The notes beneath the pieces are model-generated. The model saw only the letters and a list, made by a program, of their open reading frames with translations. It was not told where the DNA came from and did no database searches. 64,000 bases of DNA from Anaerolineae bacterium (GTDB lineage: Bacteria > Chloroflexota > Anaerolineae > UBA4142), in assembly GCA_034435055.1 (NCBI GenBank), contig DAOTXS010000024.1:342-64341 (forward strand), given 5' to 3'. A program made the position numbers and the translations under genes. Of this stretch, positions 15,035-48,551 are shown one piece after another; position 1 is the first letter of the stretch; each line of letters begins with the position of its first letter.

Positions 15035-16471
15035 CTACCTAAACAACCCGCCCACCGCAAGCGCCAGCGCCGGTGCAGGGAACACGCCCAGCGCAATCAC
15101 GCCAACCACGGCGATGATCAACGCAATCGTTACAAACACATCCACGCGCAGCTTGTCCCAACCCGGCTTGGCTTCGTTCATATACATTTGCACGAGGGGA
15201 CGCAAATAGAAATACGCTGAGACGAGACTGTTCAATACGCCGATGACCGCCAGCCACGTCCAACCATTTTCGACTGCCGCGCTGAAAATCAAAAATTTTC
15301 CAACAAACCCGGCGAACGGTGGAAAGCCGGCAAGCGACAGCATGAAAATCGTTAGTGCCGCCGCGACGAGCGGTTGCTTTTGCGCCGCGCCAGCATAATC
15401 TCCAATTTCTAATCTCTCTCGCGCGCCATCGCTTAACGCAATCACTGCGCCAAACGCACCCAGGTTCGTTAGCGTGTACGCCAGCAAATAAAACAACGCC
15501 GATGACGTACCATTCGATCCCATCGCGACGAGTGCAATCAAAATGTACCCCGCGTGCGCGATACTCGAGTACGCGAGCATGCGTTTGATATTCGATTGCA
15601 AGAGCGCGGCGACGTTGCCGAGTGTCATTGTCAGCACGGCGACAATTGCCAGCACCATTTGCCAATCGACAGAAATGCCGGGCAAGGCAACAAGGAACGC
15701 GCGGAAGAATGCGCCGAACGCCGCCGCTTTGACCGCGACGCTCATAAAGCCGGTCACGGCAGTTGGCGCGCCTTCGTAAACATCGGGTGTCCACCAATGA
15801 AACGGGACGAGCGCAACTTTGAATCCAAAGCCAACCAGTAACAATCCCGCACCGACGAGCAACAAATCGTTGCCTTGCTTCGCCGCGAGCGCGATGCGCA
15901 TCAAGTTGGTCGTGCCGGTCGCGCCAAAAATGAACGCGATGCCGTACAAAAAGAATGCCGACGAAAACGCGCCGAGCAAAAAGTATTTCATCCCGGCTTC
16001 CAGCGAATGACCATCTTCACGTTTGAACGCGGCGAGGATATACAGCGGCAACGAAAGTAATTCCAGCGCGAGAAAGATGACGATGAGATCGGTCGCGGTC
16101 GTCATCAGAATCATGCCGACAACAGCGAACAACACGAGCGCGTAATACTCGCCTTGGTCAACGCGATGCGTGCGTACGAAATCAATCGCCAACAAAATAC
16201 TCAACGCTGCGCCGATAAGAATAACAAGCGTGAGAAACAAACCAAAATTGTCGGCGACGATCATTCCGCCGAAGGCCGTTGTGTTCGCACTCCACAAACC
16301 GATCGTTGCACCCGCCGCCATGAGCAAGCCCACCAGACTAAGAAAACCCAGCCAGCGTTTGCGCGCCGGCGATGTGAACAATTCGCCGAGCAAGACGAGC
16401 AAGGCGGTGATCGTAACGATGAGCGCGGGAGCGAGGATGCTTAGATTCAAGTCAGGAATGATTATAGGCAT
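15035..16471 (-). CDS. nuoN: NADH-quinone oxidoreductase subunit N
   Basis: LELLSLPLY, EAGMKYF, FKVALVPFHWWTPDVYEG, KRMLAYSSIAHAGY, SLAGFPP. Confidence 0.96.
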   Translation of the reverse strand: MPIIIPDLNLSILAPALIVTITALLVLLGELFTSPARKRWLGFLSLVGLLMAAGATIGLWSANTTAFGGMIVADNFGLFLTLVILIGAALSILLAIDFVRTHRVDQGEYYALVLFAVVGMILMTTATDLIVIFLALELLSLPLYILAAFKREDGHSLEAGMKYFLLGAFSSAFFLYGIAFIFGATGTTNLMRIALAAKQGNDLLLVGAGLLLVGFGFKVALVPFHWWTPDVYEGAPTAVTGFMSVAVKAAAFGAFFRAFLVALPGISVDWQMVLAIVAVLTMTLGNVAALLQSNIKRMLAYSSIAHAGYILIALVAMGSNGTSSALFYLLAYTLTNLGAFGAVIALSDGARERLEIGDYAGAAQKQPLVAAALTIFMLSLAGFPPFAGFVGKFLIFSAAVENGWTWLAVIGVLNSLVSAYFYLRPLVQMYMNEAKPGWDKLRVDVFVTIALIIAVVGVIALGVFPAPALALAVGGLFR

Positions 16472-16485
16472 TTTCGATTTTCGAT

Positions 16486-16591
16486 TTGTCATTGCGAGGA
16501 GCGTCCCGAGCGAAGCGAGGGATCAGCGACAAAGCAATCTCCTAATTTAGATTTGGGGATTGCTTCGCCCCATCGGGGCTCGCAATGACAA
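16486..16591. repeat. REP-like palindromic element (GTCATTGCGAG family) copy 1
   Basis: TTGTCATTGCGAG..AAGCAATC..GATTGCTT..CTCGCAATGACAA. Confidence 0.85.
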
Positions 16592-16594
16592 GGA

Positions 16595-18067
16595 CTATTT
16601 GATCACATGTAACAACTGCATCACACTCGCCTGAATCGGATCCAAGAACGTGCGCGGGTACACGCCGATCCAAACGATGAACACGACCAACGCAACCAGC
16701 AATGCAATTTCGCGCACGGATAAATCGGAGAGCGATTTATTTTCTTCGTGCGTAATGGGTCCATTCATCACGCGTTGATACATCCACAACAAATAAACGG
16801 CAGAGAGGACAACGCCGGTGGCAGCAAACGCCGCGTACCACACATTCGCCTGAAACGCGCCGACGAGAATCAAAAATTCACCAACAAAGCCGTTCAAGCC
16901 GGGCAAGCCCACTGACGAGAACATCACAATCAGCATGAACGCGGCGTAAATCGGCATCACTTTGGCGATGCCACCAAAATCGGCGATGAGGCGTGTGTGC
17001 CGGCGTTCGTACAACATCCCCACCAGCAAAAACAGTGCGCCGGTCGAAAGACCGTGATTGATCATTTGCAAAATACCACCGCTCATCCCTTGCGCGTTGA
17101 AGGCAAACAAACCCAGCATTACAAAACCAAGGTGTGAGACACTCGAGAACGCCACCAGCGATTTCACATCGCGTTGCACGATAGACACGATGGCGCCGTA
17201 GATGATACCAATGATCGCCAGCACAATCATCCATGGCGCAAACGATTTTGCGGCCTCCGGGAACAGTGGCAAGCAGAATCGAAGGAAACCGTACGTACCC
17301 ATTTTGAGCAAGACGCCGGCAAGGATCACACTGCCCGCCGTCGGCGCTTCCACGTGCGCATCGGGTAGCCACGTGTGAAAGGGAAACATTGGTACTTTGA
17401 TCGCAAACGCCAGCGCGAACGCGAGGAACAAGATCGGTTGCAAGCCCAGCGGCACCGGCGTTCTCAAAACATCCGTGAGCGCGAACGAGAGCGTGCCAGT
17501 TACATCGCGTTGCACAAACACCAGCGCCAGCATCGCCACCAACATCAGCGTCGAGCCGAACATCGTGAACAGGATAAATTTGATGGCGGCGTACACTTTG
17601 CGCCCGTGCCCCCAAATGCCGATCAGGAACGCCATCGGGATGAGCGTAAATTCCCAAAAGATGTAGAATAGAAATAGATCGAAAGATACGAAAACGCCGA
17701 TCATTGCGGATTCGAGCAAGAGGAAAAAGATGTGATACTCTTTGACGCGCTCAATGATGCCAACCCAGGAGCCGCCAATCGCGATGATCATCAAGAACGT
17801 GGTGAGCAACACGAGCAAAATGCTCAAGCCATCCACGGCGAGATACCACGAGATACCCAGTTGCGGAATCCACGCAACGCGCTCGACGAATTGCAAATCG
17901 GCAGTGGCGCGGAAATTCAAGAACAATACAACACTGACGACGAACTCGATAATTGTCGTGGCGAGCGCGAGCCATCGAACTGCTTTTTCGGATTGGTGCG
18001 GAATGAACAATAGAATGAGCGCGCCAACCAGCGGGAGAACAATGAGAAGAGAAAGTAGATTAGTCAT
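16595..18067 (-). CDS. nuoM: NADH-quinone oxidoreductase subunit M
   Basis: [59 protein letters not shown]. Confidence 0.97.
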
Positions 18068-18707
18068 TCTTCAAGTTTCGTTGTGAAAACCAGATTTTTT
18101 CATCCGCAAGCCAACCGTCTTGGGTGGGTTGACCGATAAGATTCTCGCGGTCAAATTTCCATCGAAATGGATTCGACACAATGTACTCACGGATGCGGTT
18201 CAGTTCATTTTCATTGCGGATGATATGTTCGTAATAGTTGCGTTGCCAAAATTTTCCGACAACGTTGAGATTATTTTGTTTGATGTAGTTGAGCCACATT
18301 ATCGTGCACAATGATTTGAATGCACCAACCACATTGCCCAAGGTTGGTCTCGTAGGGGCAGGGCTCGCCCCTGCCCTGCCTTGGACGACCCTCGCCCCAT
18401 TCTGGGCGACCACAAGGGTCGCCCCAACGTCATCCGCCAACACCAGGATGCCGTGAATGTGATTAGGCATGACCACGAATGCATCCAACGCGACCGATGG
18501 AAAACGATTCGGAATATCATTCCAAGACCGATTTACAATTTCGCCTAACGCTGATAATGCGATCCCGCTGTCGCGAATTTCCGATAAGATGCACGCGCGG
18601 TCTCGAACCGTTGCTGTAATAAAGTACGCCCCTGCGCTTGAATAGTCGTACCCTTTCAAGCGGATTGACCGACGATGATGTTTCGTTGGGTTGTATCGTG
18701 ATCTCAT
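18060..18707 (-). mobile_element. REP-associated tyrosine transposase (RAYT, IS200-like Y1 HUH)
   Basis: SIRLKGYDYS, YFITA, FVVMPNHIHGI (HUH), FWQRNYYEHIIR..IREYIVSNP. Confidence 0.93.
18352..18428. repeat. REP doublet (REPIN) inside RAYT coding sequence
   Basis: GTAG-GGGCAGGG..CCCTGCCC and inverted GTTG-GGGCGACC..GGTCGCCC. Confidence 0.8.
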
Positions 18708-18721
18708 TTTGCGATTCTACA

Positions 18722-20671
18722 TTACCGCAACATCAACCACCCCAGCACCATCACCGTGCCGATAAGCATCAACAACGCGTACGCGCGCGCGTAACCGGTT
18801 TGCCATCCGCGCAGAACGCGGCTGACCGACGCCGTGGCTTGTCCCAGCCCATTCGCAAAACCATCAATGATTTTCACATCCACGGTTTGCCACAAGAACA
18901 TGGCGAGCTTGCCACCCTGTTTGACGAAAATCCAAGCATAGATTTCGTCCACATAGTACTTGTGCCACAGCAAGTTATAGATACTGCTAAATCGCTTTGC
19001 CAAGTTCTTTGGAATTTCCGGACGCAGTTGGTAGAACCAGAACGCCGTTGCAATGCCAAGCAAGCCAACTGCAACCGATGCACCGATTAACATCCATTCC
19101 ATTGATGGCGTGAGATGCAAATCGTGTGGCTTGAACACCGGCTCAAAATATCCTTCAAGGAAATTCGGTCCGATTACTTTGGGCATTCCAACAAAGCCGG
19201 CAATGATCGAGAAGAATGCGAGGATGGCAAGCGGAATCGTCATCACCGCCGGCGATTCGTGGGGATGAAGCGACCGATGGCCGACGACCGATGACAGATG
19301 ATGCTCTGCTTCGGTCTTCGGTCCTCCGTCCTCCGTCCAGCGTGCTTGCGTGCGGAAGGTCAAGAAGAACGCACGGAAAATGTAGAACGCGGTAAGTAAC
19401 GCCGTGAGCAAACCGATTGCCCACAAAATCGTATGACCGGAGCCGAACGCGGCGGCAAGAATTTCGTCTTTGCTGAAAAAGCCGGACAGGAGCGGAAAGC
19501 CGGCAATCGCCAGCGCACCCACACCAAAGGTCGTGTACGTCCACGGCATCACCTTGGACAAGCCCCCCAGTTTCCGCATATCAATGATGCCGTTCATCGC
19601 GTGCATCACACTCCCCGCCGCGAGGAAGAGCAACGCTTTGAAAAAGGCGTGCGTCATCAAATGAAAGATGCCAGCGCCGTACGCCATCACGCCAACCCCT
19701 AGGAACATATAACCGAGTTGCGAAATCGTGGAGTACGCGAGGACGCGCTTCAAATCCATTTGCACGAGCGCAATCGTCGCGGCGAAGAGCGCGGTGAGTC
19801 CACCCGTCCACGCAACGACTTCGGATGAGAACGGCGCGAGTTCGAACAAGACGTGCGAACGCGCCACCATATACACGCCCGCCGTAACCATCGTGGCGGC
19901 GTGGATGAGCGCGCTGACCGGCGTGGGACCCTCCATCGCGTCGGGCAACCAGACGTAGAGCGGGAGTTGCGCCGATTTGCCCACCGCGCCGGCAAAAAGC
20001 AACAGCGTGATGATCGTGATGATTGGTGCGCCGGGCTGGAACCATTCGTGCGCGCTCTCAAACACGTGCACAAAATCGAGCGTGCCGAACGTAACGAAAA
20101 TCAAAATCACACCCAGCCCAAAACCAAAATCGCCGACGCGCGTGGTGATGAAGGCTTTTTTGCCTGCCGCCGCCGCTTCCGGCTTGTGAAACCAGAACGC
20201 GATCAGCAAATACGAGCACAAGCCGACGAGTTCCCAGCCGACGTACATCAGCAAATAGTTATTGCCAAGCACGAGCATCAGCATCGAGAACACAAAGAGG
20301 TTGAGGTACGTAAAGAAGCGACCGTAGCCGTCGTCGTGTTCCATATAGCCGATAGAGTACACGTGGATGAGAAAGCCGACGCCGGTAACAACGAGGAGCA
20401 TCAGCGCGGAGAGCGGATCGAGCAGGAAAGCAACGTCAACTTTGAAGTCGCCGACCGGAACCCACGAATACAACGATACGTTGATGACGCGATGATGCTC
20501 GTCTTGCGCTTGCATTGCCAAGAACATCAAAAGCGACACGATGAATGAAAGCCCAACGGTGCCGCACGCGATTGCGCTGACGAGCCAGCGCGGCATCTTG
20601 CGACTAAAAATTGCGTTGATGGTTGCGCCGGCAAGCGGTAACACCGGCACGAGCCAGAGTAAGTTGGTCAA
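18722..20671 (-). CDS. nuoL: NADH-quinone oxidoreductase subunit L
   Basis: TTG start with AAGGA RBS; GWELVGLCSYLLI, GKSAQLPL..WLPDAMEGPTPVSALIHAATMV, HLMTHAFFKALLF. Confidence 0.97.
   Translation of the reverse strand: MTNLLWLVPVLPLAGATINAIFSRKMPRWLVSAIACGTVGLSFIVSLLMFLAMQAQDEHHRVINVSLYSWVPVGDFKVDVAFLLDPLSALMLLVVTGVGFLIHVYSIGYMEHDDGYGRFFTYLNLFVFSMLMLVLGNNYLLMYVGWELVGLCSYLLIAFWFHKPEAAAAGKKAFITTRVGDFGFGLGVILIFVTFGTLDFVHVFESAHEWFQPGAPIITIITLLLFAGAVGKSAQLPLYVWLPDAMEGPTPVSALIHAATMVTAGVYMVARSHVLFELAPFSSEVVAWTGGLTALFAATIALVQMDLKRVLAYSTISQLGYMFLGVGVMAYGAGIFHLMTHAFFKALLFLAAGSVMHAMNGIIDMRKLGGLSKVMPWTYTTFGVGALAIAGFPLLSGFFSKDEILAAAFGSGHTILWAIGLLTALLTAFYIFRAFFLTFRTQARWTEDGGPKTEAEHHLSSVVGHRSLHPHESPAVMTIPLAILAFFSIIAGFVGMPKVIGPNFLEGYFEPVFKPHDLHLTPSMEWMLIGASVAVGLLGIATAFWFYQLRPEIPKNLAKRFSSIYNLLWHKYYVDEIYAWIFVKQGGKLAMFLWQTVDVKIIDGFANGLGQATASVSRVLRGWQTGYARAYALLMLIGTVMVLGWLMLR
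19272..19338. repeat. Inverted heptamer array in frame within nuoL
   Basis: GACCGAT GGCCGAC GACCGAT GACAGAT - spacer - TCGGTCT TCGGTCC TCCGTCC TCCGTCC. Confidence 0.75.
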
Positions 20672-20710
20672 GTGTTAGTTCCTTGATGATATCAATTACA
20701 TCGAAATATG

Positions 20711-21361
20711 TTATAAGCTGAGAATACTTTTTATGGAGCAATATTTGATTGCTTCAGGAACTTGAATCACAATGGGTGTGATCTCCGCGCTTCCTATTGG
20801 TTGCCAAACTCCTCTTACCTCTTTCTGATTTCCAAAATTCTTCCATTGTTTCAGAACTGCAGGATGTGTGTTAGCTAAAGGAGAGTTAATATCTATGCCA
20901 TCATCGGACTCGTAATAATTGACCGCCCCAAATCCCAAGAATATCGCTTGTTTAGATAGTACCCTCGTAATCGCAGCGAAGAATAATTCGGCCGCTGTTA
21001 TTTTATAGCATGCATCATAGTGTTCTTGATTGAACCAAGCTTTATGAAGATCCTTGCTATATTCGACAGATGCGCAAAACACATACAAATTTGGGCACTC
21101 TATTCGAATGTCTTCAAAACTGCAATCAGTGATCGTAACATTACCTTGGAATAATGAGCTTAACACGCTATTTCTTCGCACGTCTTCAGGGCCTGCGTGC
21201 TTTACATGCCCATGCGCTTTCTTGATTCCTTCCATATCATCTGATACCATCCGCCCAAGACTGGAATCGTCGCGGTAACTGTAAAGCGTTCCAATCCGAA
21301 GCGACCCATCGGCAAAGAAATTATCAAGATATTTCTTCTCGGTGTACTTGTATAGCCTCAT
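20711..21361 (-). CDS. AT-rich hypothetical protein (possible DUF2971/ART-like)
   Basis: MRLYKY..LRIGTL..YVFCAS..KQWKNFGNQKEVR; visibly AT-richer than neighbours; alternative start 21382. Confidence 0.7.
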   Translation of the reverse strand: MRLYKYTEKKYLDNFFADGSLRIGTLYSYRDDSSLGRMVSDDMEGIKKAHGHVKHAGPEDVRRNSVLSSLFQGNVTITDCSFEDIRIECPNLYVFCASVEYSKDLHKAWFNQEHYDACYKITAAELFFAAITRVLSKQAIFLGFGAVNYYESDDGIDINSPLANTHPAVLKQWKNFGNQKEVRGVWQPIGSAEITPIVIQVPEAIKYCSIKSILSL

Positions 21362-21465
21362 CTGCTCACCCATGCACACCATTCGTTCAAACGAACTACT
21401 TTCAATCTTAAAACCAGCGGGGGGCTTGCCGGTTAATAGTCGGCGGATTTTTCCGGTGGCGTCAC

Positions 21466-21843
21466 CTACCTTCTCGCCCCAATCTGCAAAAACATCGGGC
21501 TAAAGTACGGAATCAACCAGATGAACCAAACGACCACACTAAATTTGTGAAAGTTCTTGATCCACTTTTCGTCTTGGCGCACCAACACAATCGTCGCCCA
21601 AACGGCGTGGATGAACATCAAAAGAATTGCAATCACGCCGGTGATGCCGTGAATATCAAAAGTCAACCCGCCCGCCATCTCCATCATCAAGCCAGTACCC
21701 CAGGTATCGCAGACAAGTCCGAGCCAAAAGAAAACCAGATGCCACGTCTTGAGCCGACCCTGGAATCGCTCGCTCCACACGCCAATCGAGTAAAAGATCA
21801 ACGCCGAGGTGATGATGATAAATGGTGCAGTTGCGCCGGTCAT
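21466..21843 (-). CDS. HsmA-family small membrane protein
   Basis: ALIFYSIGVW, CDTWGT, HGITG..AILLM..HAVWA; four TM helices. Confidence 0.75.
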   Translation of the reverse strand: MTGATAPFIIITSALIFYSIGVWSERFQGRLKTWHLVFFWLGLVCDTWGTGLMMEMAGGLTFDIHGITGVIAILLMFIHAVWATIVLVRQDEKWIKNFHKFSVVVWFIWLIPYFSPMFLQIGARR

Positions 21844-21856
21844 TCAATCGACTCTA

Positions 21857-22402
21857 TCAAACCCGGACAATCTCGCTGATCTGCACGGGCGTCGTGAGAA
21901 TCTGGCCGTTCGTGGGCAACTGCTGAATCTGGCGCACAACATCCATCCCGCTGATCACTTGACCAAACGCCGCAAATCCTTGCCCATCCGGATTCCGCTT
22001 GCCGCCAAAATCCAATTCCGGCTGATCTTCGATGCAAATAAAAAATTCCGACGACGCGCTGCCGGGCTTGAGCCGCGCCATCGAGACCGTTCCATCTTTG
22101 TGCCGAATGCCGGTCTTGTCATTTGTTTCGTGTGCGATGGGCGGCAACCGGTTTGCCGGCTCGCGCATTCCCAGTTCGACCATACCTAGCCCGCCCTGAA
22201 TCACCTGAATCTTCACCGCATCATTCGGCTGATTATCCAAACGCACGACGCGATAGAACGATGAACTTGCATAGCGATTCTCGTCGACATATCGCAGAAA
22301 ATTCGCGGCGGTGATCGGCGCGCGATCGTTATACACTTGAACGGTAATATCGCCATATTCAGTTCGAATCAAGACCATCGGATTCTGCGCCACCAAATTC
22401 AC
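21857..22402 (-). CDS. Cyclophilin-type peptidyl-prolyl isomerase
   Basis: APITAANFLRYV, FYRVV, IQGG, GTVSMAR, SEFFI, AAFGQVISGMDVV. Confidence 0.93.
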   Translation of the reverse strand: MNLVAQNPMVLIRTEYGDITVQVYNDRAPITAANFLRYVDENRYASSSFYRVVRLDNQPNDAVKIQVIQGGLGMVELGMREPANRLPPIAHETNDKTGIRHKDGTVSMARLKPGSASSEFFICIEDQPELDFGGKRNPDGQGFAAFGQVISGMDVVRQIQQLPTNGQILTTPVQISEIVRV

Positions 22403-22416
22403 CTTTTCAAACGATA

Positions 22417-23034
22417 CTATTCCGCATGCAACGCGATGCGATATTTACACACGGCGTCGCCTTTGGCACAACACGCGATTTCTTCGACAGCAAAATTATC
22501 ATCGTCCAGCGCCCACGCGATCATCCCGCCGATGAAACCAACCGTCGTGTGGCACACCGGCTTGTCACTCTGCCAATCGATGCAGTTACCGCAATGCGGG
22601 TCTTCCCAATAAAAGTACTCACCTTCTTCAGAAAATTTAATCTGCGTGTTCAATTGGTGGCTGTACTCGCGCGCGACCGTATCCATTCCCAGTTTCACTT
22701 TGGCGCGGCGCGGCAAGAATTTCATCGCGATGCGCGTTGCAGTGGCGAGCGCGGCGTTTTCTTCCAACGCATTCAACGCGCGTTGTTTGCCGGCGCGCCG
22801 TAAAATCGCTTTCGCGCCGCGCGCGCCGTACACCTCGAACAAGGCGTGATTGACCTGGCTCATATAGCGCAGTTTGTGACCGCCGTGTTCGGTGTTGCTT
22901 GGCGGAAAATTGTTGATGTATTGAGGCAAGCCGGCTTGCCGGAGAATCGCGTCCGTGCCGTGTTTGCCCACAACATCTTCAACCGCGAGGAGAATGACGC
23001 GAAACGCTTTGTTGACCAGTTCCGCTTCGCTCAT
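22417..23034 (-). CDS. Stand-alone V4R-domain protein
   Basis: C-terminal CGNC..VCH..GFI..VEEIACCAKGDAVCKY. Confidence 0.8.
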   Translation of the reverse strand: MSEAELVNKAFRVILLAVEDVVGKHGTDAILRQAGLPQYINNFPPSNTEHGGHKLRYMSQVNHALFEVYGARGAKAILRRAGKQRALNALEENAALATATRIAMKFLPRRAKVKLGMDTVAREYSHQLNTQIKFSEEGEYFYWEDPHCGNCIDWQSDKPVCHTTVGFIGGMIAWALDDDNFAVEEIACCAKGDAVCKYRIALHAE

Positions 23035-23037
23035 CGC

Positions 23038-23337
23038 TTAGCCCTTCAACCCGCTGATTTCATCGACATCGACAGTTTCGCGCGCGCGGAAAATCGCGAC
23101 GATGATTGCCAGCCCGACGGTAACTTCGGCGGCGGCGACGGCGAGAATCAAAAAGACAAACACTTGCCCGTCGAGAACCTGAAGGAAACGCGAAAACGCG
23201 ACGAACGCGAGATTAACCGCATTCAGCATCAACTCAATACTTATGAACATGATGAGTGGATTGCGACGCACCAGCATCCCAACCGTACCGATGCTGAACA
23301 GAATTGCGCTGAGAATGATAAAGTGATTAACGCCCAT
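23038..23337 (-). CDS. nuoK: NADH-quinone oxidoreductase subunit K
   Basis: [28 protein letters not shown]. Confidence 0.96.
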
Positions 23338-23343
23338 AAACGA

Positions 23344-23401
23344 GTTCCAAGTTCAAGGTTCAAGGTTTGACCTTGAACCTGAAACTTTGAACCTTTAACC
23401 T
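23344..23401. repeat. Inverted heptamer array (CAAGGTT/TGAACCT) between nuoJ and nuoK
   Basis: CCAAGTT CAAGGTT CAAGGTT TGACCT TGAACCT GAAACTT TGAACCT TTAACCT. Confidence 0.8.
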
Positions 23402-23907
23402 TTCTTCGGTTTCTTTGCCAGCACGATTACGCCGACCATCGCCACGAGTAGCAAGAGCGAGGTGATTTCAAATGGCAGCAAGAAATCGGTGAAGAGCAAC
23501 GCGCCGACCGCTTGCGTACTGCCAATCTCGGCGATGGTTTCCGGCGAGAACATCCCACGTGCCGGCGGCAGAACTGCAATCGCCAACACGGCAACCAACT
23601 CGGTGACGAGTGCCAGTCCGAAAATGATCGCCAGCGGTCGTTGGCGTTTCAACGCGCCCGCGCCTTGATCGATGCCAGGACTGAGCATCATAATCACGAA
23701 CACGAACAGGATCAGGATCGCGCCAGCATAAATCATCACTTGCGCCACGGCGATGAATGGCGCGCTCAAAAGTACGTACAACGCCGCGAGCGAAACGAAT
23801 ACGACGGCGAGACACAGTGCGGAGTACACCGCGCTGCGCACCGCCACCACGCCAAGCGCGGCGATTATTGCCAAGCCAGCAAAAACGTAAAAGACGATAA
23901 GGTCCAT
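23395..23907 (-). CDS. nuoJ: NADH-quinone oxidoreductase subunit J
   Basis: AVYSALCL, QVMIYAGAILILFVFVIMML, LPFEITSLLLLVAMVG. Confidence 0.95.
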   Translation of the reverse strand: MDLIVFYVFAGLAIIAALGVVAVRSAVYSALCLAVVFVSLAALYVLLSAPFIAVAQVMIYAGAILILFVFVIMMLSPGIDQGAGALKRQRPLAIIFGLALVTELVAVLAIAVLPPARGMFSPETIAEIGSTQAVGALLFTDFLLPFEITSLLLLVAMVGVIVLAKKPKKG

Positions 23908-23927
23908 TGAGAATCCAAATAATGATC

Positions 23928-24009
23928 TGTCATTGCGAGGAGGCGGTTTGCGCCGACGAAGCAATCTTTAAGTAACTTGAGAGATTGCTTCGCTCCGCTC
24001 GCAATGACA
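23928..24009. repeat. REP-like palindromic element (GTCATTGCGAG family) copy 2
   Basis: TGTCATTGCGAG..GAAGCAATCT..AGATTGCTTC..CTCGCAATGACA. Confidence 0.85.
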
Positions 24010-24053
24010 AAGCGGATTTGGCACGTTCCTCATTGCGACAGGCTTGATGCCTG

Positions 24054-24539
24054 TCATTTCTTCAACTCACGAATCTTTTCGTTGATTTCCTTACAATGCG
24101 ACGTCTCGTGATTGTAAATCACCACCAGCAAATCCTTGAGCGGAATTTCGCCGGCAATTGGATGTTCGCCGCGCAGATCAAGTTGTTGCAAGGTAACGCT
24201 GTCCAAGAACGCAATCAACTCCTGGTGCGCCGCATCGAGTTCTTTGCGCACGTCCGCAAACGACATCGTTTTGCGTTTGGCAACCTGCCGCGCGTTATAG
24301 ACATCGTTGTTATAATCGTCGGGCAGTTGCGGGTCTTCGCCCGTGGCAAAACGTTGTGCCATCCGTGTCATCCCGCGCTTGGCGCCGACGAGGTGCGCGA
24401 TCTGATCTTTGATCGACCATTCCGGCGTAATCATCAGCGTTGTGGCTTGGTCTTCGCTCAATTGATCGAGCGTCCGCGTCATCATCGCGCACGCTTCATT
24501 CAATTTCGCCGCAATTGGTTCGAGTTCTTTGAGCATCAT
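24054..24539 (-). CDS. DinB/YfiT-family protein
   Basis: WSIKDQIAHL and HETSH His ligands. Confidence 0.85.
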   Translation of the reverse strand: MMLKELEPIAAKLNEACAMMTRTLDQLSEDQATTLMITPEWSIKDQIAHLVGAKRGMTRMAQRFATGEDPQLPDDYNNDVYNARQVAKRKTMSFADVRKELDAAHQELIAFLDSVTLQQLDLRGEHPIAGEIPLKDLLVVIYNHETSHCKEINEKIRELKK

Positions 24540-24548
24540 CACCCTCTT

Positions 24549-24600
24549 GTAGGGGCGACGCTGCGTGGTCGCCCGGGCGACCACGCAGGGTCGCCTCTAC
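24549..24600. repeat. REP doublet (REPIN), RAYT-type
   Basis: GTAG-GGGCGACGCTGCGTGGTCGCCC followed by its inverted copy ending CTAC; supplies the nuoH TAG. Confidence 0.85.
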
Positions 24601-25613
24601 CGATTCAACACCACCATCACAATTGCCGTGATAAAAATGTTAGCCAGCGCGAGCGGCAATATCACCTTCCAACCCAAACGCATCAATTGATCGTAACGAA
24701 ACCGCGGGAGCGTACTCCGCACCCACATCAAAATGAAAATGAAAAACGCAATCTTGAGCAAGAGCCACCACACGCCGGGGAACAATCCAAACGGTCCTTG
24801 ATAGCCGCCCAGGAACAGCGTCGCCGCAATCGCGCTGACGGTGATCATGTTGATGTACTCTGCCATATAAAATAACGCGAACTTGAGCGACGAATATTCC
24901 GTCTGATACCCGGCGACGAGTTCCGTCTCCGCTTCCGGCAAATCGAACGGCAGACGATTGATTTCCGCGGTTGCCGCAACGATGTACAGAATAAAGCCAA
25001 GGGGTTGCCACACGACGTTCCACATCGTCGATTGCTTGGCAGTAATATCGACGAGACTCAGCGAGCCAGTGATCATCAACACGCCGACGAGCGACAGTCC
25101 CAACGAGACTTCGTACGAAATCATTTGCGCGGTCGAACGCAACGCGCCGAACATCGAGTACTTGTTGTTCGACCCCCAGCCGCCCAGCACAATGCCGTAC
25201 ACGCCGAGCGAACCCATCGCTAACAAATAGAGCAGCGCAATGTTGACATCGGCGATGTAGAAATCGATTTTGTAATCAAAGAGCGTCGTCGTTGGGTGAA
25301 GCGGAATCACCGCCCACGCGAGCAACGCCGTGGCGACCGCGATGCCGGGCGCAATCGTGTACGTGATCTTGTCGGCGGCGGAGGGCCAAATATCTTCCTT
25401 GAAAATCATCTTAATCGCGTCGGCAATCGGTTGCAGCCACGCGATCCCGCCGAATGCGCCAACGCGATTCGGTCCCACGCGCGCTTGGATGCGCGCGGCG
25501 ACGTACCGTTCCACGAGCGTGAGGTACGCAAACGCGCCCAACAACGCGACGATGACGATAATCGATTTGATGCCCGCGTCGAGAATGGTGATGACTAATG
25601 GATCGAGATTCAC
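24597..25613 (-). CDS. nuoH: NADH-quinone oxidoreductase subunit H
   Basis: ERYVAARIQARVGPN, QPIADAIK, SYEV, RLPFDLPEAETELVAGY, RFRYDQLM. Confidence 0.97.
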   Translation of the reverse strand: MNLDPLVITILDAGIKSIIVIVALLGAFAYLTLVERYVAARIQARVGPNRVGAFGGIAWLQPIADAIKMIFKEDIWPSAADKITYTIAPGIAVATALLAWAVIPLHPTTTLFDYKIDFYIADVNIALLYLLAMGSLGVYGIVLGGWGSNNKYSMFGALRSTAQMISYEVSLGLSLVGVLMITGSLSLVDITAKQSTMWNVVWQPLGFILYIVAATAEINRLPFDLPEAETELVAGYQTEYSSLKFALFYMAEYINMITVSAIAATLFLGGYQGPFGLFPGVWWLLLKIAFFIFILMWVRSTLPRFRYDQLMRLGWKVILPLALANIFITAIVMVVLNR

Positions 25614-25618
25614 CCCGC

Positions 25619-26092
25619 CTAGTCCTTTTGCAACTGTTCGATGATTTCATCCAACTTGGCGTTCGTCAAGTCCTGCGCGTGCTTTTCGCCGTCGATCAAC
25701 ATCACCGGCGCATGATCGCATCCGCCGAGACATTCGGCGGCTTGCAGCGTGACGGCACCATCGGCGGAAGTTTGCCCGGCTTGGCAGCCCAGTTTCTGCT
25801 CGAGATGTTCTAGCATTTCATCTGCGCCGCGCAACGCGCACGGCAAATCGGTGCAGAACATGATCGTGTGCTTGCCCGGTTTCTCACGCGCGTACATCGT
25901 ATAAAACGTTGCCACGCCGTTCACTTCGGTTTTCGACAAGCCGAGCAAATCGCCGATTTCTTGGATGGCTTCGTCCGGCAACCACCCCACCTCGCGTTGG
26001 ACAAGATGCAACGCCGGCATCACTGCCGAGCGTTTGTCCGGGTACTTGGTGGTGAGTTTTTGAATTTCAGTCTTTACGTCTTTGGAAAGCAC
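25619..26092 (-). CDS. nuoE: NADH-quinone oxidoreductase subunit E ([2Fe-2S])
   Basis: SAVMPALHLVQ, VATFYTMY, CTDLPC and CLGGC; GTG start with G-rich RBS. Confidence 0.9.
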   Translation of the reverse strand: MLSKDVKTEIQKLTTKYPDKRSAVMPALHLVQREVGWLPDEAIQEIGDLLGLSKTEVNGVATFYTMYAREKPGKHTIMFCTDLPCALRGADEMLEHLEQKLGCQAGQTSADGAVTLQAAECLGGCDHAPVMLIDGEKHAQDLTNAKLDEIIEQLQKD

Positions 26093-26143
26093 TGTTCCCC
26101 CCAGTGGAAAAGTCGAACATCGGAAATTCCTCAAAATCTATTT

Positions 26144-26613
26144 GCCGCAGAATCACGCAGAAAATTTATCACTTGGATTTGGCAAGTCGCTTGAATTCGC
26201 ATTTCTGCTCACCAAAGTTCAACAATAACCCCACCTGAATTCCAGTTGCCTTCAAATAGTTCAACAATTGTGCTTCGTGTTTGGAATTGTATTCCTTTTC
26301 TGCTTTGAGTTCGACGATTACCTTGCCGTCGACGAACAAATCAGCAGTGTAGTGTCCAACCAGCGTGCCTTTGTAACGAACGGAAATATCAGGTTGTCGC
26401 TCGACGGCAATACCTCGAGATTTCAGTTCGACCAACAGCGCATTCTCATAAACTTTTTCCAGAAATCCATAACCTAATACTTTCCAAACTTCAAATGCCG
26501 CGCCGATGATTTCTTTGGTTAACTCTCCATACAAAAAATCATTCATGTATTTTCCTGCAGATTTTGCCCGGCGGGTTACTTTTCTTCTGCGTTTTTCTGC
26601 GTGAATCTGCGGC
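26144..26613. mobile_element. Putative GxxExxY mini-element bounded by 21-bp inverted repeats
   Basis: GCCGCAGAATCACGCAGAAAA (26144-26164) and TTTTCTGCGTGAATCTGCGGC (26593-26613), 1 mismatch. Confidence 0.65.
26169..26546 (-). CDS. GxxExxY protein (PD-(D/E)XK nuclease fold)
   Basis: GYGFLEKVY motif, ADLFVDGKVIVELKA, AQLLNYL, GLLLNFG. Confidence 0.94.
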   Translation of the reverse strand: MNDFLYGELTKEIIGAAFEVWKVLGYGFLEKVYENALLVELKSRGIAVERQPDISVRYKGTLVGHYTADLFVDGKVIVELKAEKEYNSKHEAQLLNYLKATGIQVGLLLNFGEQKCEFKRLAKSK

Positions 26614-26620
26614 TAATTGT

Positions 26621-26977
26621 CTAATCCCAGTCGAAACCGCCTTTGCGCCAGATGTAGACATAGCCCACCAAAAGAATCGCGATGAAAATTGCCATCTCGA
26701 TCAACCCGAACAGTCCCAGTTGATTGAACAAGACTGCCCAGGGGTAAAAGAAAATGATCTCGATGTCGAAGAGGATAAAGAGAACGGCGGTCAAATAGTA
26801 CTTGATGGAAATTCTGCGGCGCGCGGAACCAAACGGCGGCATGCCCGATTCGTAGGGCGATAACTTGGCGGAATTGGGTTTGCGAGGACCAGTGATGAAG
26901 GAGAAAACCAACGCGATTGCCGCAAACGCTACGGCAATGATGATCATCACGAGGATGGGTAAATAGTCTATCGGCAT
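26621..26977 (-). CDS. nuoA: NADH-quinone oxidoreductase subunit A
   Basis: PYESG, FILFDIE..FFYPWA, WRKGGFDW. Confidence 0.97.
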   Translation of the reverse strand: MPIDYLPILVMIIIAVAFAAIALVFSFITGPRKPNSAKLSPYESGMPPFGSARRRISIKYYLTAVLFILFDIEIIFFYPWAVLFNQLGLFGLIEMAIFIAILLVGYVYIWRKGGFDWD

Positions 26978-27016
26978 TGAAGACCTGATGAGAACGGGAT
27001 CGAAATAACTTTATGA

Positions 27017-27045
27017 ATCATATTACATTTCGCGCAACTTGTCAA
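27017..27045 (-). promoter_or_regulatory. sigma70-type promoter of nuoA
   Basis: TTGACA (27045-27040) - 17 nt - TATGAT (27022-27017). Confidence 0.75.
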
Positions 27046-27076
27046 AAAAAAGACGCGCAGTTCCTCACCGCGCGTC
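27044..27076 (-). terminator. Intrinsic terminator of copper operon
   Basis: GACGCGC/GCGCGTC stem plus 8 T on minus strand; T-run overlaps the nuoA -35. Confidence 0.75.
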
Positions 27077-27084
27077 GAGCAGTG

Positions 27085-27273
27085 CTAATGATCGTGTCCG
27101 TGATCGGGCATATGCATCATCGGTCCGTTTTTCAAAAACTTTTCCGGGTCTTTTTGAAACGCGACCTGACAGCCCTTGGCGCAGAAATAGTACGTGGTGC
27201 CTTGATAGTCCCACTTCCATTTGGCAGTACTTTCCTCCACCATCATCCCGCACACCGGGTCTTTGTGTTGCAT
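27085..27273 (-). CDS. YHS-domain protein
   Basis: KDPVCGM..YQGTTYYFCAKGC..FQKDPEKF, His-rich tail; AAGGAGG RBS. Confidence 0.92.
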   Translation of the reverse strand: MQHKDPVCGMMVEESTAKWKWDYQGTTYYFCAKGCQVAFQKDPEKFLKNGPMMHMPDHGHDH

Positions 27274-27295
27274 CTGCAATCCTCCTTTTGGATTT

Positions 27296-27877
27296 TTATT
27301 TGTTCGCATCGATTCCAATAAATAAACCGCCGATCAACCGATTCACTTGGCGCACGTGAAAGCCGGCGCGCTCCACCGCCCCTAACGTGTCGCGATTCAG
27401 ATGGCAATTGCCGGCAATTTGCTTCCACAGCGGCGTGAGCGCGTCTTGCATCCCGGCAATCAGGCGATTGCGCGTTCGCACGTGTTCGACCAATCGAAAC
27501 GTGCCGCCGGGTTTCAATACGCGATGCACTTCACTCAACGCGCGCGCCGGCTCGCCGATACTGCAAAACGTCAGCGTGCTGACCACCGCATCGAACGAAG
27601 CATCCACGAACGGCAACTCTTCCGCGCGTGCTTGCTGCAAAACGGTCGATGTGCCATTCCGTCGTGCCAACGCTCGCTGCAACGATTCGCCGTTCGGATC
27701 GATGGCGGCAATCGATTGGGCGGCGCGATAGTGTTGCAAGTTGAGTCCGGTGCCCACGCCGATTTCGAGTACGCGTCCGCGCGCGGTACTGACAGCCCAC
27801 CGCCGCCACTGCCGCACGCCAAACGAATCGAACGGCGCGATGATTGTATCGTACGAGGATGCAATGCGTTTATCCAC
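27296..27877 (-). CDS. Class I SAM-dependent methyltransferase
   Basis: VLEIGVGTG, AEELPF, FDAVVS, VLKPGG, LVEH. Confidence 0.92.
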   Translation of the reverse strand: MDKRIASSYDTIIAPFDSFGVRQWRRWAVSTARGRVLEIGVGTGLNLQHYRAAQSIAAIDPNGESLQRALARRNGTSTVLQQARAEELPFVDASFDAVVSTLTFCSIGEPARALSEVHRVLKPGGTFRLVEHVRTRNRLIAGMQDALTPLWKQIAGNCHLNRDTLGAVERAGFHVRQVNRLIGGLFIGIDANK

Positions 27878-28094
27878 TTTGGTTCATCCATCGCGAAACA
27901 ACCGTCCGCAACTTGACCGCGTCTGCCCAAATAATCGGTTGTCCATTCACCGACGCAACCGGCGTATAATGACACTGATCGAGGCAATCGACCAGCTCGA
28001 CTGTAATTTGCGCGCCGTACTGTTTTTTCAAACTCAGCGCAGCAGCGATCACCGGTTTGCTTCGTTCGCAATTGCGACAGACTTTGATGATCAT
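27870..28094 (-). CDS. Small thioredoxin-like (2Fe-2S ferredoxin/DUF1450-like) protein
   Basis: 74 aa, VCRNC..CLDQC..VNG; stop overlaps next ATG. Confidence 0.65.
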   Translation of the reverse strand: MIIKVCRNCERSKPVIAAALSLKKQYGAQITVELVDCLDQCHYTPVASVNGQPIIWADAVKLRTVVSRWMNQSG

Positions 28095-28123
28095 TTTTCC
28101 ATTTTGTCATTGCGCTTGAGAGG

Positions 28124-30631
28124 TTACAACACCGGCGCTTTGAATCCACGCAAGCGCAAAGAATTCGTTACAACAAATACCGACGAAAACGCCATCGCCG
28201 CCGCTGCGATAATTGGATTCAAGAGCAACGCAAAGAACGGATACAACACGCCCGCCGCAATCGGGATGCCGGCGACGTTGTAGAAAAACGCCCAAAACAA
28301 ATTGCCTTTGATCGTGCGAATCGTTTGCTTCGACAACGCAATCGCTGTGGCGACGCCGCGCAAATCGCCGGAGATGAGCGTGATTTCTGCCGCTTGCATC
28401 GCCACGTCGGTTCCTGTTCCAATCGCAATGCCGATGTTTGCTTGTGCGAGCGCGGGCGCATCGTTGATGCCATCGCCCACCATTGCGACGATCTCGCCTT
28501 GCGCTTGCAATTCTTTCACCTTGTCTGCTTTTTGATGCGGCAAAACTTCCGCAAAGAAATTATCGATGCCGACCTGTTGGGCAATCGCGGCGGCAGTGCG
28601 CGGATTGTCGCCGGTCAACATATAGACCTTGACCCCCAGTTTCTTCAACGCCTCGACCGCCGCTTTGGAATTGGGTTTCAATGTGTCGGCGACGGCGATC
28701 AACCCGGCGGGCTTGCCATCGATTGCCGCGAACATCGCCGTTTTGCCTTCGTCCGCCAATTCACTGGCTTGCGATTCCAAACCATCGAGCGCGATATTTT
28801 GATCGAGCATCAATTTGCTGTTGCCGATCAACACCTCGCGTCCGTCGATGCGTGCGCGGATGCCGTGCCCGGCAACCGCGCCAAATTCCGATGGCTCGGT
28901 CAAACTCAATCCGATTTCTTGCGCGTGTTTGACGATGGCTTGACCGAGCGGATGCTCGGAATTTTTTTCCGCGCTCGCAACCAATTGCAACAAACGTTCA
29001 ACGTTCAACGTTTCAGGTTTAAGGTTTGAACTTTGAACCTCAAACTTTGAACTTGTAACTACATCTGTCACGGCAGGTTTTCCTTGCGTCAGCGTCCCGG
29101 TTTTGTCGAGAATAATCGCCGTAACCTTGTGCGCGGTTTCCAACGCGCCGCCGCTCCGTATCAACACACCATTCTCCGCGCCTTTGCCAGTGCCAACCAT
29201 AATCGCGGTCGGCGTGGCGAGACCGAGCGCGCACGGACACGCGATGATCAACACGGCGACGAAATTGACGAACGCCATATTGAACGATGGTTGCGGTCCA
29301 AAAATCAGCCACACCAAAAATGTTGCCATTGCGATAGCGACGACAATCGGCACGAACACCGCCGAGATTTGATCGGCGAGGCGTTGAATCGGCGCTTTCG
29401 ATCCTTGTGCGTCTTCGACGAGTTTGATGATTTGCGCGAGCGCAGTTTCGCGTCCGACTTTCCGCGCCTCGAATTTGAACGCACCCATTTTGTTGATCGT
29501 CGCGCCAATAACGTTATCGCCGACATTTTTCTCGACGGGCAAACTTTCGCCGGTGATCATCGATTCGTCAATCGATGAATAGCCGGAAAGAATCACGCCA
29601 TCGACCGGGATTTTTTCGCCGGGGCGCACGCTAACAATGTCGCCCACGCGCACGTCGTTCACCGGAATTTCGATTTCCTGTCCGTTGCGTTCGATACGCG
29701 CGGTCTTTGCTTGCAACTGCATCAAATTCTTGATCGCTTCGGACGTTTGTCCTTTGGCGCGCGCTTCCAAGTATTTTCCAACTTTGATGAGCGTGATGAT
29801 GACCGCCGCGCTTTCAAAGTACACGTGCGAATCGATTTTGACACCGAACAACCCGGCGACTAGAACGATGACACTGAACCAATACGCCGCGTTCGTGCCA
29901 AGCGAAATGAGCAAATCCATATTCGGCGCGCCGGCGCGCAACGATTTCCACGCGCCGCGATGATACCCACGACCAACGTAGAATTGGACCGGCGTCGCGA
30001 GTGCAAACAACAACCATTTGAAACCGTCCCACCAAAAGAGCCACGGCATAAAATCGTGCATCTTGAGTGCGTGCACAATATCGTGCGTCATCGAGAGGAC
30101 AAAGAGCGGGGCGGTGAATGCAATGCCGATCATCAAGTCGCGCCACTCGCGTTGGCGTTCTTCCTCGCGCAATGCGCGTTCCCGATCGACGAGTTCTTCC
30201 TGTTTGTTGCCGAGTTCAAGTACTTCATACCCGGCATCTTCGACGGCGCGTTTCAGATCCGCAAGTGTTGCCGCGCCGGGAATCATTTCGACCGTTGCGC
30301 GTTCGGTCGCCAGATTAACCGCGACGTTTAGTACGCCGGGAACCTCTTTGAGTCCATTCTCAACGTGCATCACGCAACTGGCGCAGGTCATTCCGCCAAT
30401 TGGCAACGTGATTTTATCGACAACAACATCGTAACCCACATCGCGTACTGCCGTGACCATTTTATCAATAGTGGTTTGTTCTGGATCGAACTGCACTGTC
30501 GCGCGTTCGTTGGCGAGATTGACCACCGCGGTTTGCACACCCGCGACCTCTTTCAATCCGCCTTCGACGTGCATCACGCACGCGGCGCAGGTCATGCCGC
30601 TGATTGGCAATGTTATTTGTTGGGTAGACAT
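28124..30631 (-). CDS. copA: Cu(I)-exporting P1B-type ATPase
   Basis: Two GMTCxxC HMA domains, TGES, CPC, DKTGT, SEHP, GDGIND, YN and MAFSS; csoR upstream. Confidence 0.96.
28992..29054. repeat. Nine-unit inverted heptamer array in frame within copA
   Basis: AAACGTT CAACGTT CAACGTT TCAGGTT TAAGGTT TGAACTT TGAACCT CAAACTT TGAACTT = 63 nt. Confidence 0.85.
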
Positions 30632-30663
30632 CTCTATCCTGTCAGTCAACCAGTGCCTAGTTG

Positions 30664-30945
30664 CTAGATTTTTGAAGCGGTTTCAAACACATCGAGCAAT
30701 TCTTTGATGACGCGCTCGCGTTCTTTGGGTTTGTTGCCGCGAATCGCCGTTGTGACGCAGTGGTTCATGTGGCGTTCGAGCAAAAGCGCGTTCAATTTGT
30801 CCAACGCTTTTTCAATCGCCTGAGTTTGTTTGATGATGTCAATGCAATAGGCGTCTTCGTCGATCATACGCGCCACTGCGCCCATATGTCCCTGAATGCT
30901 CAAAGCACGGTTTTTGAGTTGCTGTTTGTGATCGTCCATTGCCAT
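30664..30945 (-). CDS. csoR: CsoR/RcnR-family metal-sensing repressor
   Basis: [22 protein letters not shown]; precedes copA. Confidence 0.9.
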
Positions 30946-30951
30946 ACCTTT

Positions 30952-30981
30952 TACCCATCCCACCCCCCACCGGAGGGGGTA
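30952..30981. promoter_or_regulatory. Putative CsoR operator
   Basis: Minus strand TACCCCCTCCGGTGGGGGGT: C-tract/G-tract pseudo-palindrome just downstream of the -10. Confidence 0.65.
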
Positions 30982-30991
30982 ATCTAAAGCC

Positions 30992-31020
30992 ATTGTATCG
31001 CGCGCGCGGGAGTTTGTCAA
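30992..31020 (-). promoter_or_regulatory. sigma70-type promoter of csoR-copA
   Basis: TTGACA (31020-31015) - 17 nt - TACAAT (30997-30992). Confidence 0.85.
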
Positions 31021-33971: not shown

Positions 33972-34892
33972 CTATTGCACACCCGACCACGAACGTTCGT
34001 AGATGAGGACTTTCCAAATCTCGTCTTCTTTGAGTGTGCCTTTCCACGGTGGCATACCGGTATTCTTGACGCCTTCCATCACCAGATAAAAATGGCAATC
34101 GACCGGCATTCCTTGCATAAACGCCTTGTCCGCTAGATTTGCTGGTTTGGGGTTGAGCGCGCCTGCGACAACCCCATCGCCCTTGCCGGCGGTGCCGTGG
34201 CACGACGCGCAATTAGTATCGTAAATCGTTTTGCCTTGTGCTAGAATCGCGCGGTCGCTAAACGGATATGGGGCTTTTTTGCCGGCGTACTCCGCCGGGA
34301 TATTTTGGCACAATGGAATCAAGCCGGCAGCCCCCGGTTGCGGGGTTGGCGTGGGACCGCGCGTGGGGGTGGGACCGGGCGGGCCGGCGGGAGGCCAGGC
34401 ATTTACTTCCGGCGCTTGTTTTTCCCAGTTCGATACAAAAGCCACGAGCGCATCGATTTGGTCGGGGCGCATCGGTCCGCCGTACTGTTGCGCCCACGTT
34501 GGCATTTTTGCCGCGTACAAATCAGGACGCGATTGCACCGGTCGGCCGGCGGCAATCGTGTTCTTTAAAAAGGCTTGATTACTGCCAACCCATCCGATTT
34601 CTTTAGCGCGTCGACCATCGAACATATCTTTGCGCGCGATTGCCGGCGCCACGCCCGGCAGACCTTCGCCAAGTTTGCCGTGACACGAATAGCAGTATTG
34701 CCCGTACAGGTCTGCACCGACTTCGATCTCGCGTCCTTTGAGCGCCATTCCGCGTCGTTCCATTTCGGTGGGCTCGTCCGGCGGAATCAGCCCCAAATCG
34801 CGCCCCAAATCATTCACGGCGATGGATGCCAGCGGGATGCACGTGAGCAAAGTAAAAATCAAACCGACGAGAATTTTGAGTTGAATGGACAT
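33972..34892 (-). CDS. Di-heme cytochrome c, membrane-anchored
   Basis: CYSCH and CASCH, MPTW and MPPW axial Met motifs. Confidence 0.92.
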   Translation of the reverse strand: MSIQLKILVGLIFTLLTCIPLASIAVNDLGRDLGLIPPDEPTEMERRGMALKGREIEVGADLYGQYCYSCHGKLGEGLPGVAPAIARKDMFDGRRAKEIGWVGSNQAFLKNTIAAGRPVQSRPDLYAAKMPTWAQQYGGPMRPDQIDALVAFVSNWEKQAPEVNAWPPAGPPGPTPTRGPTPTPQPGAAGLIPLCQNIPAEYAGKKAPYPFSDRAILAQGKTIYDTNCASCHGTAGKGDGVVAGALNPKPANLADKAFMQGMPVDCHFYLVMEGVKNTGMPPWKGTLKEDEIWKVLIYERSWSGVQ

Positions 34893-40589: not shown

Positions 40590-40597
40590 TTTTGTTA

Positions 40598-48538: not shown

Positions 48539-48551
48539 GAAAATCCATTTT

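Follow-up and report, generated by a model that had tools for sequence, protein, structure and literature searches.

How can a bacterium build respiratory complex I from a gene cluster that holds eight of the fourteen nuo genes? This question is raised by a stretch of 64,000 nucleotides (hereafter the window) from contig DAOTXS010000024.1 of an Anaerolineae bacterium (assembly GCA_034435055.1), in which a minus-strand run at positions 15035-26977 carries nuoA, E, H, J, K, L, M and N in their canonical relative order, interleaved with genes of other families. In what follows we argue that this partial cluster is genuine, conserved and functional, that the missing genes of the peripheral arm are probably located elsewhere, and that a canonical complex I would be assembled from dispersed genes, a reading to which we give a probability of about 0.8. 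The locus would supply the proton-pumping membrane arm (NuoA, H, J, K, L, M and N) together with NuoE; nuoB, C, D and I, as well as nuoF and G, would sit at one or more other places in the genome, either as the only copies or as genes common to another nuo cluster, and the dispersed products would come together in an ordinary NADH:quinone oxidoreductase. We are most likely looking at an unusual gene layout rather than at a new enzyme.

Content and integrity of the nuo cluster

An earlier note on this DNA had described the cluster as made of nuoA, E, H, J, K, L, M and N only, in canonical order, and this is what the listing of open reading frames (ORFs), the Pfam and NCBIfam families and a tblastn search of the window all return (Table 1). 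The run thus comprises all seven membrane-arm subunits of complex I and one subunit of the N-module, NuoE. With 8 of the 14 nuo genes, it departs from the typical one-operon nuoA-N organisation, a trait of the organisation of the genes and not of the enzyme. The genes standing between the nuo genes code for GxxExxY, DinB_2, V4R, cyclophilin, HsmA, hypothetical and RAYT (REP-associated tyrosine transposase, REP standing for repetitive extragenic palindromic) proteins; five of them, on which the earlier note is silent, are found from nuoK to nuoM, four before nuoL and RAYT between nuoL and nuoM. As also seen before, the nuoE stop (25619) and the nuoH start (25613) are separated by a gap of 5 nucleotides (nt). 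The promoter proposed for the run, TTGACA-17-TATGAT, is there as well; it is a match to the consensus only, in a region where the count of promoter-like sites is not above chance, and the same-strand nuo run is possibly a single transcription unit.

All eight nuo ORFs are intact. Between the window and its sister species, the ratio of non-synonymous to synonymous substitutions (dN/dS, Nei-Gojobori method, at dS 0.4-1.2) is 0.061 for nuoA, whose product is 91% identical in amino acids (aa), 0.087 for nuoE, 0.096 for nuoH, 0.076 for nuoJ, 0.077 for nuoK, 0.105 for nuoL, 0.070 for nuoM and 0.112 for nuoN. NuoA, H, J, K, L, M and N all score above the Pfam gathering thresholds. Inspection of motifs recovers the YESG loop and the D71/E73 motif of NuoA, both membrane glutamates of NuoK, the glutamate of transmembrane helix (TM) 5, the TM7 lysine and the HAFFK and SKDE motifs of NuoL, the E/K/K/E motifs of NuoM and the E/K/K/K motifs of NuoN. 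The charged residues of the proton channels are thus kept (TM5 glutamate, TM7 lysine and the lysine or glutamate of TM8 and TM12 in NuoL, M and N, the glutamate pair of NuoK, the Asp/Glu of NuoA), where we take the residues to be equivalent to those of the Escherichia coli and Thermus thermophilus motifs. The candidate identity of the cluster as a Mrp antiporter or Mbh hydrogenase module was rejected, the best family and PDB matches being to complex I throughout and those to Mrp and MbhD marginal.

Two subunits speak more directly of what is missing. In solved structures of complex I, the TM1-2 and TM5-6 loops of NuoH build the quinone chamber with NuoB/NuoD. With 356 bits, the window's NuoH is above the equivalog cut-off of NCBIfam NF004741 (305); it scores 311 bits with T. 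thermophilus Nqo8 and 295 bits with E. coli NuoH and, when aligned to chain H of 4HE8 and chain H of 7NYH, keeps the TM1-2 loop RIQARVGPNRVG (RxQxRxGPNRVG), LQPIADAIK (LQPxADxxK) and the PFDLPEAETELVAGYQTEYS loop (PFDLPEAExELVxGYxTEYS). We know of no NuoH homologue that works without partners of the NuoB/D type. NuoE, for its part, lies above the TIGR01958 cut-off (173 vs 142.4 bits), also passes NF005722, and keeps the four cysteine ligands of the [2Fe-2S] cluster N1a (C-x4-C...C-x3-C); its best matches in the PDB are NuoE/NDUFV2 of complex I, ahead of HydC of hydrogenases and FdsG of formate dehydrogenases. NuoE pairs with NuoF in solved complex I structures, so that a nuoF is to be expected somewhere in the genome, and to our knowledge no NuoF-independent role exists for a NuoE of the complex I type.

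To judge from their sequences, NuoH, NuoA and NuoE thus appear to keep every feature needed for docking a canonical peripheral arm, and the nuo cluster looks functional by every test available. The genome should have its nuoB, C, D, I, F and G at other places, to judge from a NuoH shaped for the Q-module and a NuoE in need of NuoF. Among the options raised by the earlier note, relocation of the peripheral genes is the best supported, if only indirectly.

Authenticity of the layout and its mobile elements

The contig has first to be trusted. Misassembly had been among the possibilities raised by the earlier note; a collapsed or chimeric contig, or faulty binning, would then have dropped nuoBCD, FG and I. 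The source is a 68.5-kb contig of a metagenome-assembled genome (MAG) with repeats at two junctions; no positive evidence for such an accident was found. Independent contigs were identified by exact-product look-ups, and their collinearity was followed by blastn. At least 10 independent conspecific contigs, coming from at least nine samples and from the JGI, NCBI MAG and Logan pipelines, show the layout again: JGI 3300043178 (a 51-kb contig), 3300037465, 3300043243, 3300043177 and 3300038379, MAG GCA_964553815.1, and Logan contigs of five runs. These contigs are 97-100% identical in nucleotides and collinear over the nuoA-nuoE-nuoH-DinB-nuoJ-nuoK-V4R-PPIase-HsmA junctions (PPIase, peptidyl-prolyl isomerase). 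Two MAGs of a sister species, GCA_037440625.1 (125-kb contig) and GCA_037444225.1 (90-kb contig), with 75-88% nucleotide identity to the window, both display the compact order nuoA-nuoE-nuoH-DinB-nuoJ-nuoK-V4R-HsmA-nuoL-nuoM-nuoN. Relatives, conspecific contigs and sister-species MAGs alike, have the same nuo content. The partial layout is real and conserved in two species; with the same junctions in so many independent contigs and in both sister-species MAGs, misassembly is refuted at the level of contigs, and we regard the chance of an artefact as negligible.

One conspecific contig (L083), compared over 15035-31000, shows a stepwise fall of identity with the window, from 97% over nuoA-HsmA to 93% in nuoL, 90% in nuoM and 81% in nuoN, which suggests a recombination tract or a divergent allele at the 3' end of the cluster.

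The mobile elements of the cluster can be read against this background. The earlier note had placed a GxxExxY cassette in the slot of nuoB, C and D. The cassette is there, directly behind the nuoA stop and between two inverted repeats of 25 nt (26140-26164 and 26593-26617) that are 92% complementary; it is absent from strain L090 and from the sister species (L100, L182), where the slot is a spacer of only 21-50 nt between nuoA and nuoE, and in some strains (L084) its gene is cut to 97 aa by a nonsense mutation. The gene behaves as a small mobile cassette, with a strain-specific insertion. Related sequences of 27 nt occur at two other intergenic sites of the window, 40595-40621 and 48549-48575. 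The RAYT insertion, in turn, sits exactly at the border of nuoL and nuoM and reads in their direction; it is confined to the window strain, and its junction is supported by Logan contig L186; in L083, L100 and L182, which lack it, nuoL and nuoM overlap. GxxExxY and RAYT are recent strain-specific insertions into short spacers, not replacements of lost genes.

The slot of nuoI was said to hold a REPIN-DinB-REP arrangement. The REPIN-like palindrome, shared by contigs L083, L085 and L087 and the only matching REP doublet in the 64 kb, and the DinB_2 gene, which occupies the usual position of nuoI, are as described, and the element on the 3' side belongs to a second type of hairpin repeat. DinB_2 is present in L083-L085 and in the sister species (L100, L182), with a dN/dS of 0.096. 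The V4R gene also keeps its position in the sister species, with a more divergent sequence (64% aa identity), as does HsmA (95% aa identity, dN/dS 0.059). The positions of DinB_2, V4R and HsmA are thus kept in both species. The PPIase gene, present in the species of the window, is missing from the sister species; the slot of the hypothetical gene is variable, L083 having a different gene of 302 aa and the sister species none.

A REPIN, a RAYT and a mobile cassette within a single cluster, together with a gene content between nuoK and nuoL that varies among strains, could make one think of a non-functional relic, left after repeat- or transposase-mediated deletion of the peripheral-arm genes. 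Such a relic would sit uneasily with eight intact nuo ORFs evolving at dN/dS 0.06-0.11 for dS of about 0.4-1.2, with the conservation of the catalytic motifs tested, and with a sister species in which the nuo content is already identical and the mobile elements are lacking. The absence of B, C, D, F, G and I from the layout is older than the split between the two species, and the layout is under purifying selection. As the content A, E, H, J, K, L, M and N predates the mobile elements, these did not cause the loss of B-C-D. The recent repeat-mediated deletion suggested earlier is therefore unlikely, and a relic in general very improbable.

The missing genes and comparable clusters

Where, then, would the rest of the complex be? 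We searched with NuoB, NuoC-D, NuoF, NuoG and NuoI from a canonical Chloroflexota cluster (L027), verified with Pfam. The six missing genes most likely lie at other places of the genome, and several observations weigh against this conclusion. By tblastn, none of nuoB, C, D, F, G and I is present in the whole window, the sole match (E = 0.001) being a small ferredoxin of the 2x[4Fe-4S] type near 7300-7540. Some 8 kb beyond the left edge, reached via contigs sharing proteins with the window, contain no nuo genes either. The partial membrane-arm operons published for actinomycetes are extra copies of unknown function (PMC3314556), so that the assembly of a canonical complex I is not guaranteed. 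Finally, the conserved non-nuo genes inside the cluster, DinB_2, V4R and HsmA, remain unexplained; DinB_2 and V4R might conceivably help to assemble or protect the complex, though nothing supports this.

Remnants of the missing genes were not found inside the cluster by tblastn. To the right, extension from a gene located some 5 kb before the end of the window provided only a 1.2-kb contig. A NuoL scan of a genome collection returned, among the matches listed, relatives 47-56% identical, the window's own species being absent from them. The use of REP and other repeats as organism-specific probes for further contigs was dropped, since the REP arm occurs twice in the 64 kb and no 13-mer more than four times.

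Absence from the surroundings also feeds a different proposal, that of a stand-alone or differently partnered membrane module, made of the membrane subunits and NuoE, possibly with DinB_2, V4R and HsmA, and working without NuoBCDI. It might possibly act as an ion pump or an antiporter, or work together with a redox partner of another kind, along the lines of earlier speculation on the partial nuoAHJKLMN operons of actinomycetes. The lack of the six genes within 64 kb, the kept positions of DinB_2, V4R and HsmA in two species, with strong purifying selection on DinB_2 and HsmA, the maintenance of membrane-arm-only nuo operons in several actinomycetes (PMC3314556, PMC6676996), and the presence of nuoE without adjoining nuoF or nuoG both in this lineage and in Acidobacteriota (L011, L014) can all be quoted in its favour. 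Nearly unchanged NuoH loops around the quinone chamber and at the contact with the Q-module are, however, hard to explain without binding of NuoB/D, the NuoE is of the complex I type, and the PPIase and hypothetical genes vary between strains.

HsmA provides a further argument of this kind. We take this small membrane protein to bind haem. Its family figures by name in papers on the haem-dependent resistance of Clostridioides difficile to metronidazole. A metagenome scan with an HsmA alignment gathered 80 homologues (L101-L180), 64-81% identical and thus unusually well conserved, on unrelated contigs, and in none of these 80 loci does HsmA adjoin membrane nuo genes. HsmA as a general partner of nuo clusters was dropped for that reason, and we treat it as a passenger, which it probably is, in a position specific to this lineage. 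At one of these metagenome loci (L159), NuoE/F/G-like genes lie downstream of HsmA. All in all, a membrane module that stands alone or has another partner seems to us unlikely.

We return to dispersed genes encoding an ordinary complex I, for which the comparison with other genomes provides a precedent. We labelled 80 NuoL-anchored genome loci by blastp, with spot checks by Pfam. An Armatimonadota MAG (L078, on a 1.06-Mb contig) has nuoA-E-F-H-J-K-L-M-N, and a Thermoanaerobaculia MAG (L074) A-E-F-G-H-J-K-L-M-N. In a Methylomirabilota MAG (L040), A-E/F-G-H-J-K-L-M-N comes directly after another cluster ending in M-N, nuoE and nuoF being one uninterrupted frame; a literature search on complex I gene clusters in Methylomirabilis found nothing relevant. 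Two Acidobacteriota MAGs (L011, L014) have E-J-K-L-M-N, with a nuoE that adjoins neither nuoF nor nuoG, and many other clusters of this phylum read A-C-D-E-F-G-H-J-K-L-M-N, without B or I, with a second cluster tail to tail. Altogether, clusters from which B, C, D, G and I are partly or wholly missing, and in which E, with or without F and G, is kept beside membrane-arm genes, are found in Armatimonadota, Acidobacteriota, Methylomirabilota and Latescibacterota (also L021, L025, L032, L036 and L037).

In L078, L074, L040, L011 and L014, as in the window, nuoE stands beside membrane-arm genes, and the 12-22 kb covered at each of these five loci contain no B, C, D or I. Unlike the window, the first three keep nuoF next to nuoE, and none of the five has DinB_2, V4R or HsmA, their proteins being 43-60% identical to those of the window. 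In a neighbour-joining tree of NuoH, the window falls among Chloroflexota and Armatimonadota sequences that come mostly from complete clusters, and the partial clusters are scattered. Such scattering, and identities of only 43-60%, indicate that these layouts probably arose independently. They suggest that the nuo operon was fragmented repeatedly, in different phyla, at the boundaries of modules (B-C-D, F-G and I).

Known systems frame this interpretation. The canonical nuo operon (E. coli nuoA-N, T. thermophilus nqo1-14) has the same relative order, canonical proteins and key residues; the window differs from it by the lack of B, C, D, F, G and I and by the unrelated genes interleaved. The 11-subunit complex I-like enzymes (PMC3144371) share with the window the modularity of their gene sets, in which a locus may lose a whole module; they keep B, C, D and I without E, F and G, and the locus of the window is their opposite. 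That keeping E without BCDI is the reverse of the 11-subunit type, as the earlier note had put it, is correct for this locus, which is not unique in this respect, comparable clusters being present in Armatimonadota, Thermoanaerobaculia, Methylomirabilota and Acidobacteriota. The cyanobacterial ndh genes are another dispersed set of complex I genes. In Chloroflexus aurantiacus, a second complex I set is loosely arranged, nuoE and nuoF being 800 genes apart and nuoG missing (PMC3150298). Subunits of one complex are there encoded at several loci, as we propose here; unlike in the window, A, B, C and D stay with H-N. Together with the clusters of other phyla that lack the Q-module genes, this set gives nuo gene dispersal its precedent. 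More generally, partial nuo clusters are abundant in genome surveys (PMC4453560; bioRxiv 10.1101/2025.03.13.643058).

The closest precedent is the partial NDH-1 operon of Salinispora, Streptomyces and Kocuria, nuoA-(hypothetical)-H-J-K-L-M-N, found beside a complete operon and with an undemonstrated function (PMC3314556, PMC6676996). It has the same seven membrane-arm genes in canonical order, with an extra gene between nuoA and nuoH. That gene is hypothetical in this "partial 2" type and a bona fide nuoE in the window, the two clusters being compared by gene content alone. The "partial 2" type is described as A, H, J, K, L, M and N without B, C, D, E, F, G or I, which the window matches but for its conserved nuoE; retention of a bona fide nuoE is what sets it apart.

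A bolder interpretation may also be considered. The lineage might lack a canonical Q-module, or its membrane arm might work with another redox partner, in a complex as yet undescribed that would include NuoE and perhaps DinB_2, V4R and HsmA; in a weaker form, nuo clusters that keep genes of the N-module and lack those of the Q-module would be a recurrent and functionally meaningful class in at least four phyla, of which two alternative membrane arms sharing one Q-module might be an example. We consider this interpretation decidedly improbable.

If the missing genes are simply elsewhere, the relevance of the locus is mainly for annotation. Pipelines based on operons or clusters would score such genomes as having a partial complex I (the Nuo-Partial category of bioRxiv 10.1101/2025.03.13.643058), and would mis-infer their respiratory capacity. 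Repeated fragmentation of nuo clusters at module boundaries also bears on the evolution and regulation of the modules of complex I. Only if the Q-module is truly absent would the locus point to a new type of energy-converting complex. A further point in favour of the dispersed-gene reading is an operon for a bc-type complex III, located within the window at some 7 kb from nuoA and in keeping with a respiratory chain based on quinones.

Features of the locus and of the rest of the window

The features of the locus are collected in Table 1. The relatives of nuoN are called at 478 aa, and the equivalent start would here be near 16471.

Table 1. Coordinates of the nuo genes, interleaved genes, repeats, transcription signals and complex III genes in the window.
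Feature	Position	Strand	Remarks
nuoN	15035-16492	-	485-aa ORF; PF00361 271 bits
nuoM	16595-18067	-	490 aa; PF00361 257 bits
RAYT-like gene	18060-18707	-	NF047646 65 bits, below the cut-off of 80; diverged
nuoL	18722-20671	-	649-aa ORF; TTG start; C-terminal lateral-helix region; PF00361, PF00662, PF01010
Hypothetical gene	20711-21382	-	223 aa; no Pfam or NCBIfam match; no exact product on record
HsmA-family small membrane protein	21466-21843	-	125 aa; TIGR03987 163 bits
Cyclophilin-type PPIase	21857-22393	-	178 aa as called; PF00160 115 bits
V4R-domain gene	22417-23034	-	205 aa; PF02830
nuoK	23038-23337	-	99 aa; PF00420 99 bits
nuoJ	23395-23907	-	170 aa as called, ORF to 23964; PF00499 131 bits; also called in L001 and L083
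Second hairpin repeat type, GTCATTGCGAGCGGAGCGAAGCAATC...CTCGCAATGAC	~23965-24050; 16486-16594		After DinB; between nuoM and nuoN
DinB_2-family gene	24054-24536	-	160 aa as called, ORF to 24584; PF12867 70 bits
REPIN-like palindrome	24549-24600		52 nt; two inverted 26-nt REP arms; overlaps the nuoH stop, before the DinB start
nuoH	24597-25613	-	338 aa; PF00146 409 bits
nuoE	25619-26092	-	157 aa; GTG start; ORF extends to 26134; PF01257 176 bits
GxxExxY (PD-(D/E)XK_3) cassette	26127-26620	-	Gene 26169-26546; TIGR04256 148 bits; ~0.5 kb
nuoA	26621-26977	-	118 aa; PF00507 131 bits
Sigma-70-like promoter TTGACA-17-TATGAT	27017-27045	-	11/12 matches; ~40 nt upstream of nuoA; directly after the terminator hairpin
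Intrinsic-terminator-like hairpin	27052-27076	-	10-bp stem, T8 tail; ends the upstream YHS/methyltransferase unit
Dihaem cytochrome c	33972-34892	-	bc-type complex III operon
Cytochrome b	34923-36749	-	608 aa; bc-type complex III operon
Rieske protein	36786-37484	-	bc-type complex III operon

Further along the window, two arrays of a repeat with a period of 8 nt (CAACTATC/GCACTATC-like units), at 46716-46803 and 47570-47633, are separated by about 0.8 kb and each followed by a shared segment of 66 nt. A GAF-PAS adenylate cyclase is encoded at 48602-50335. Two tandem paralogous Ser/Thr kinase genes occupy 50339-54208 and 54365-57301, one with a TPR tail and the other with a PD40/WD40 tail; they share a repeat of 203 nt with 76% identity, and are adjoined by the gene of a 978-aa protein with four cyclic-nucleotide-binding domains.

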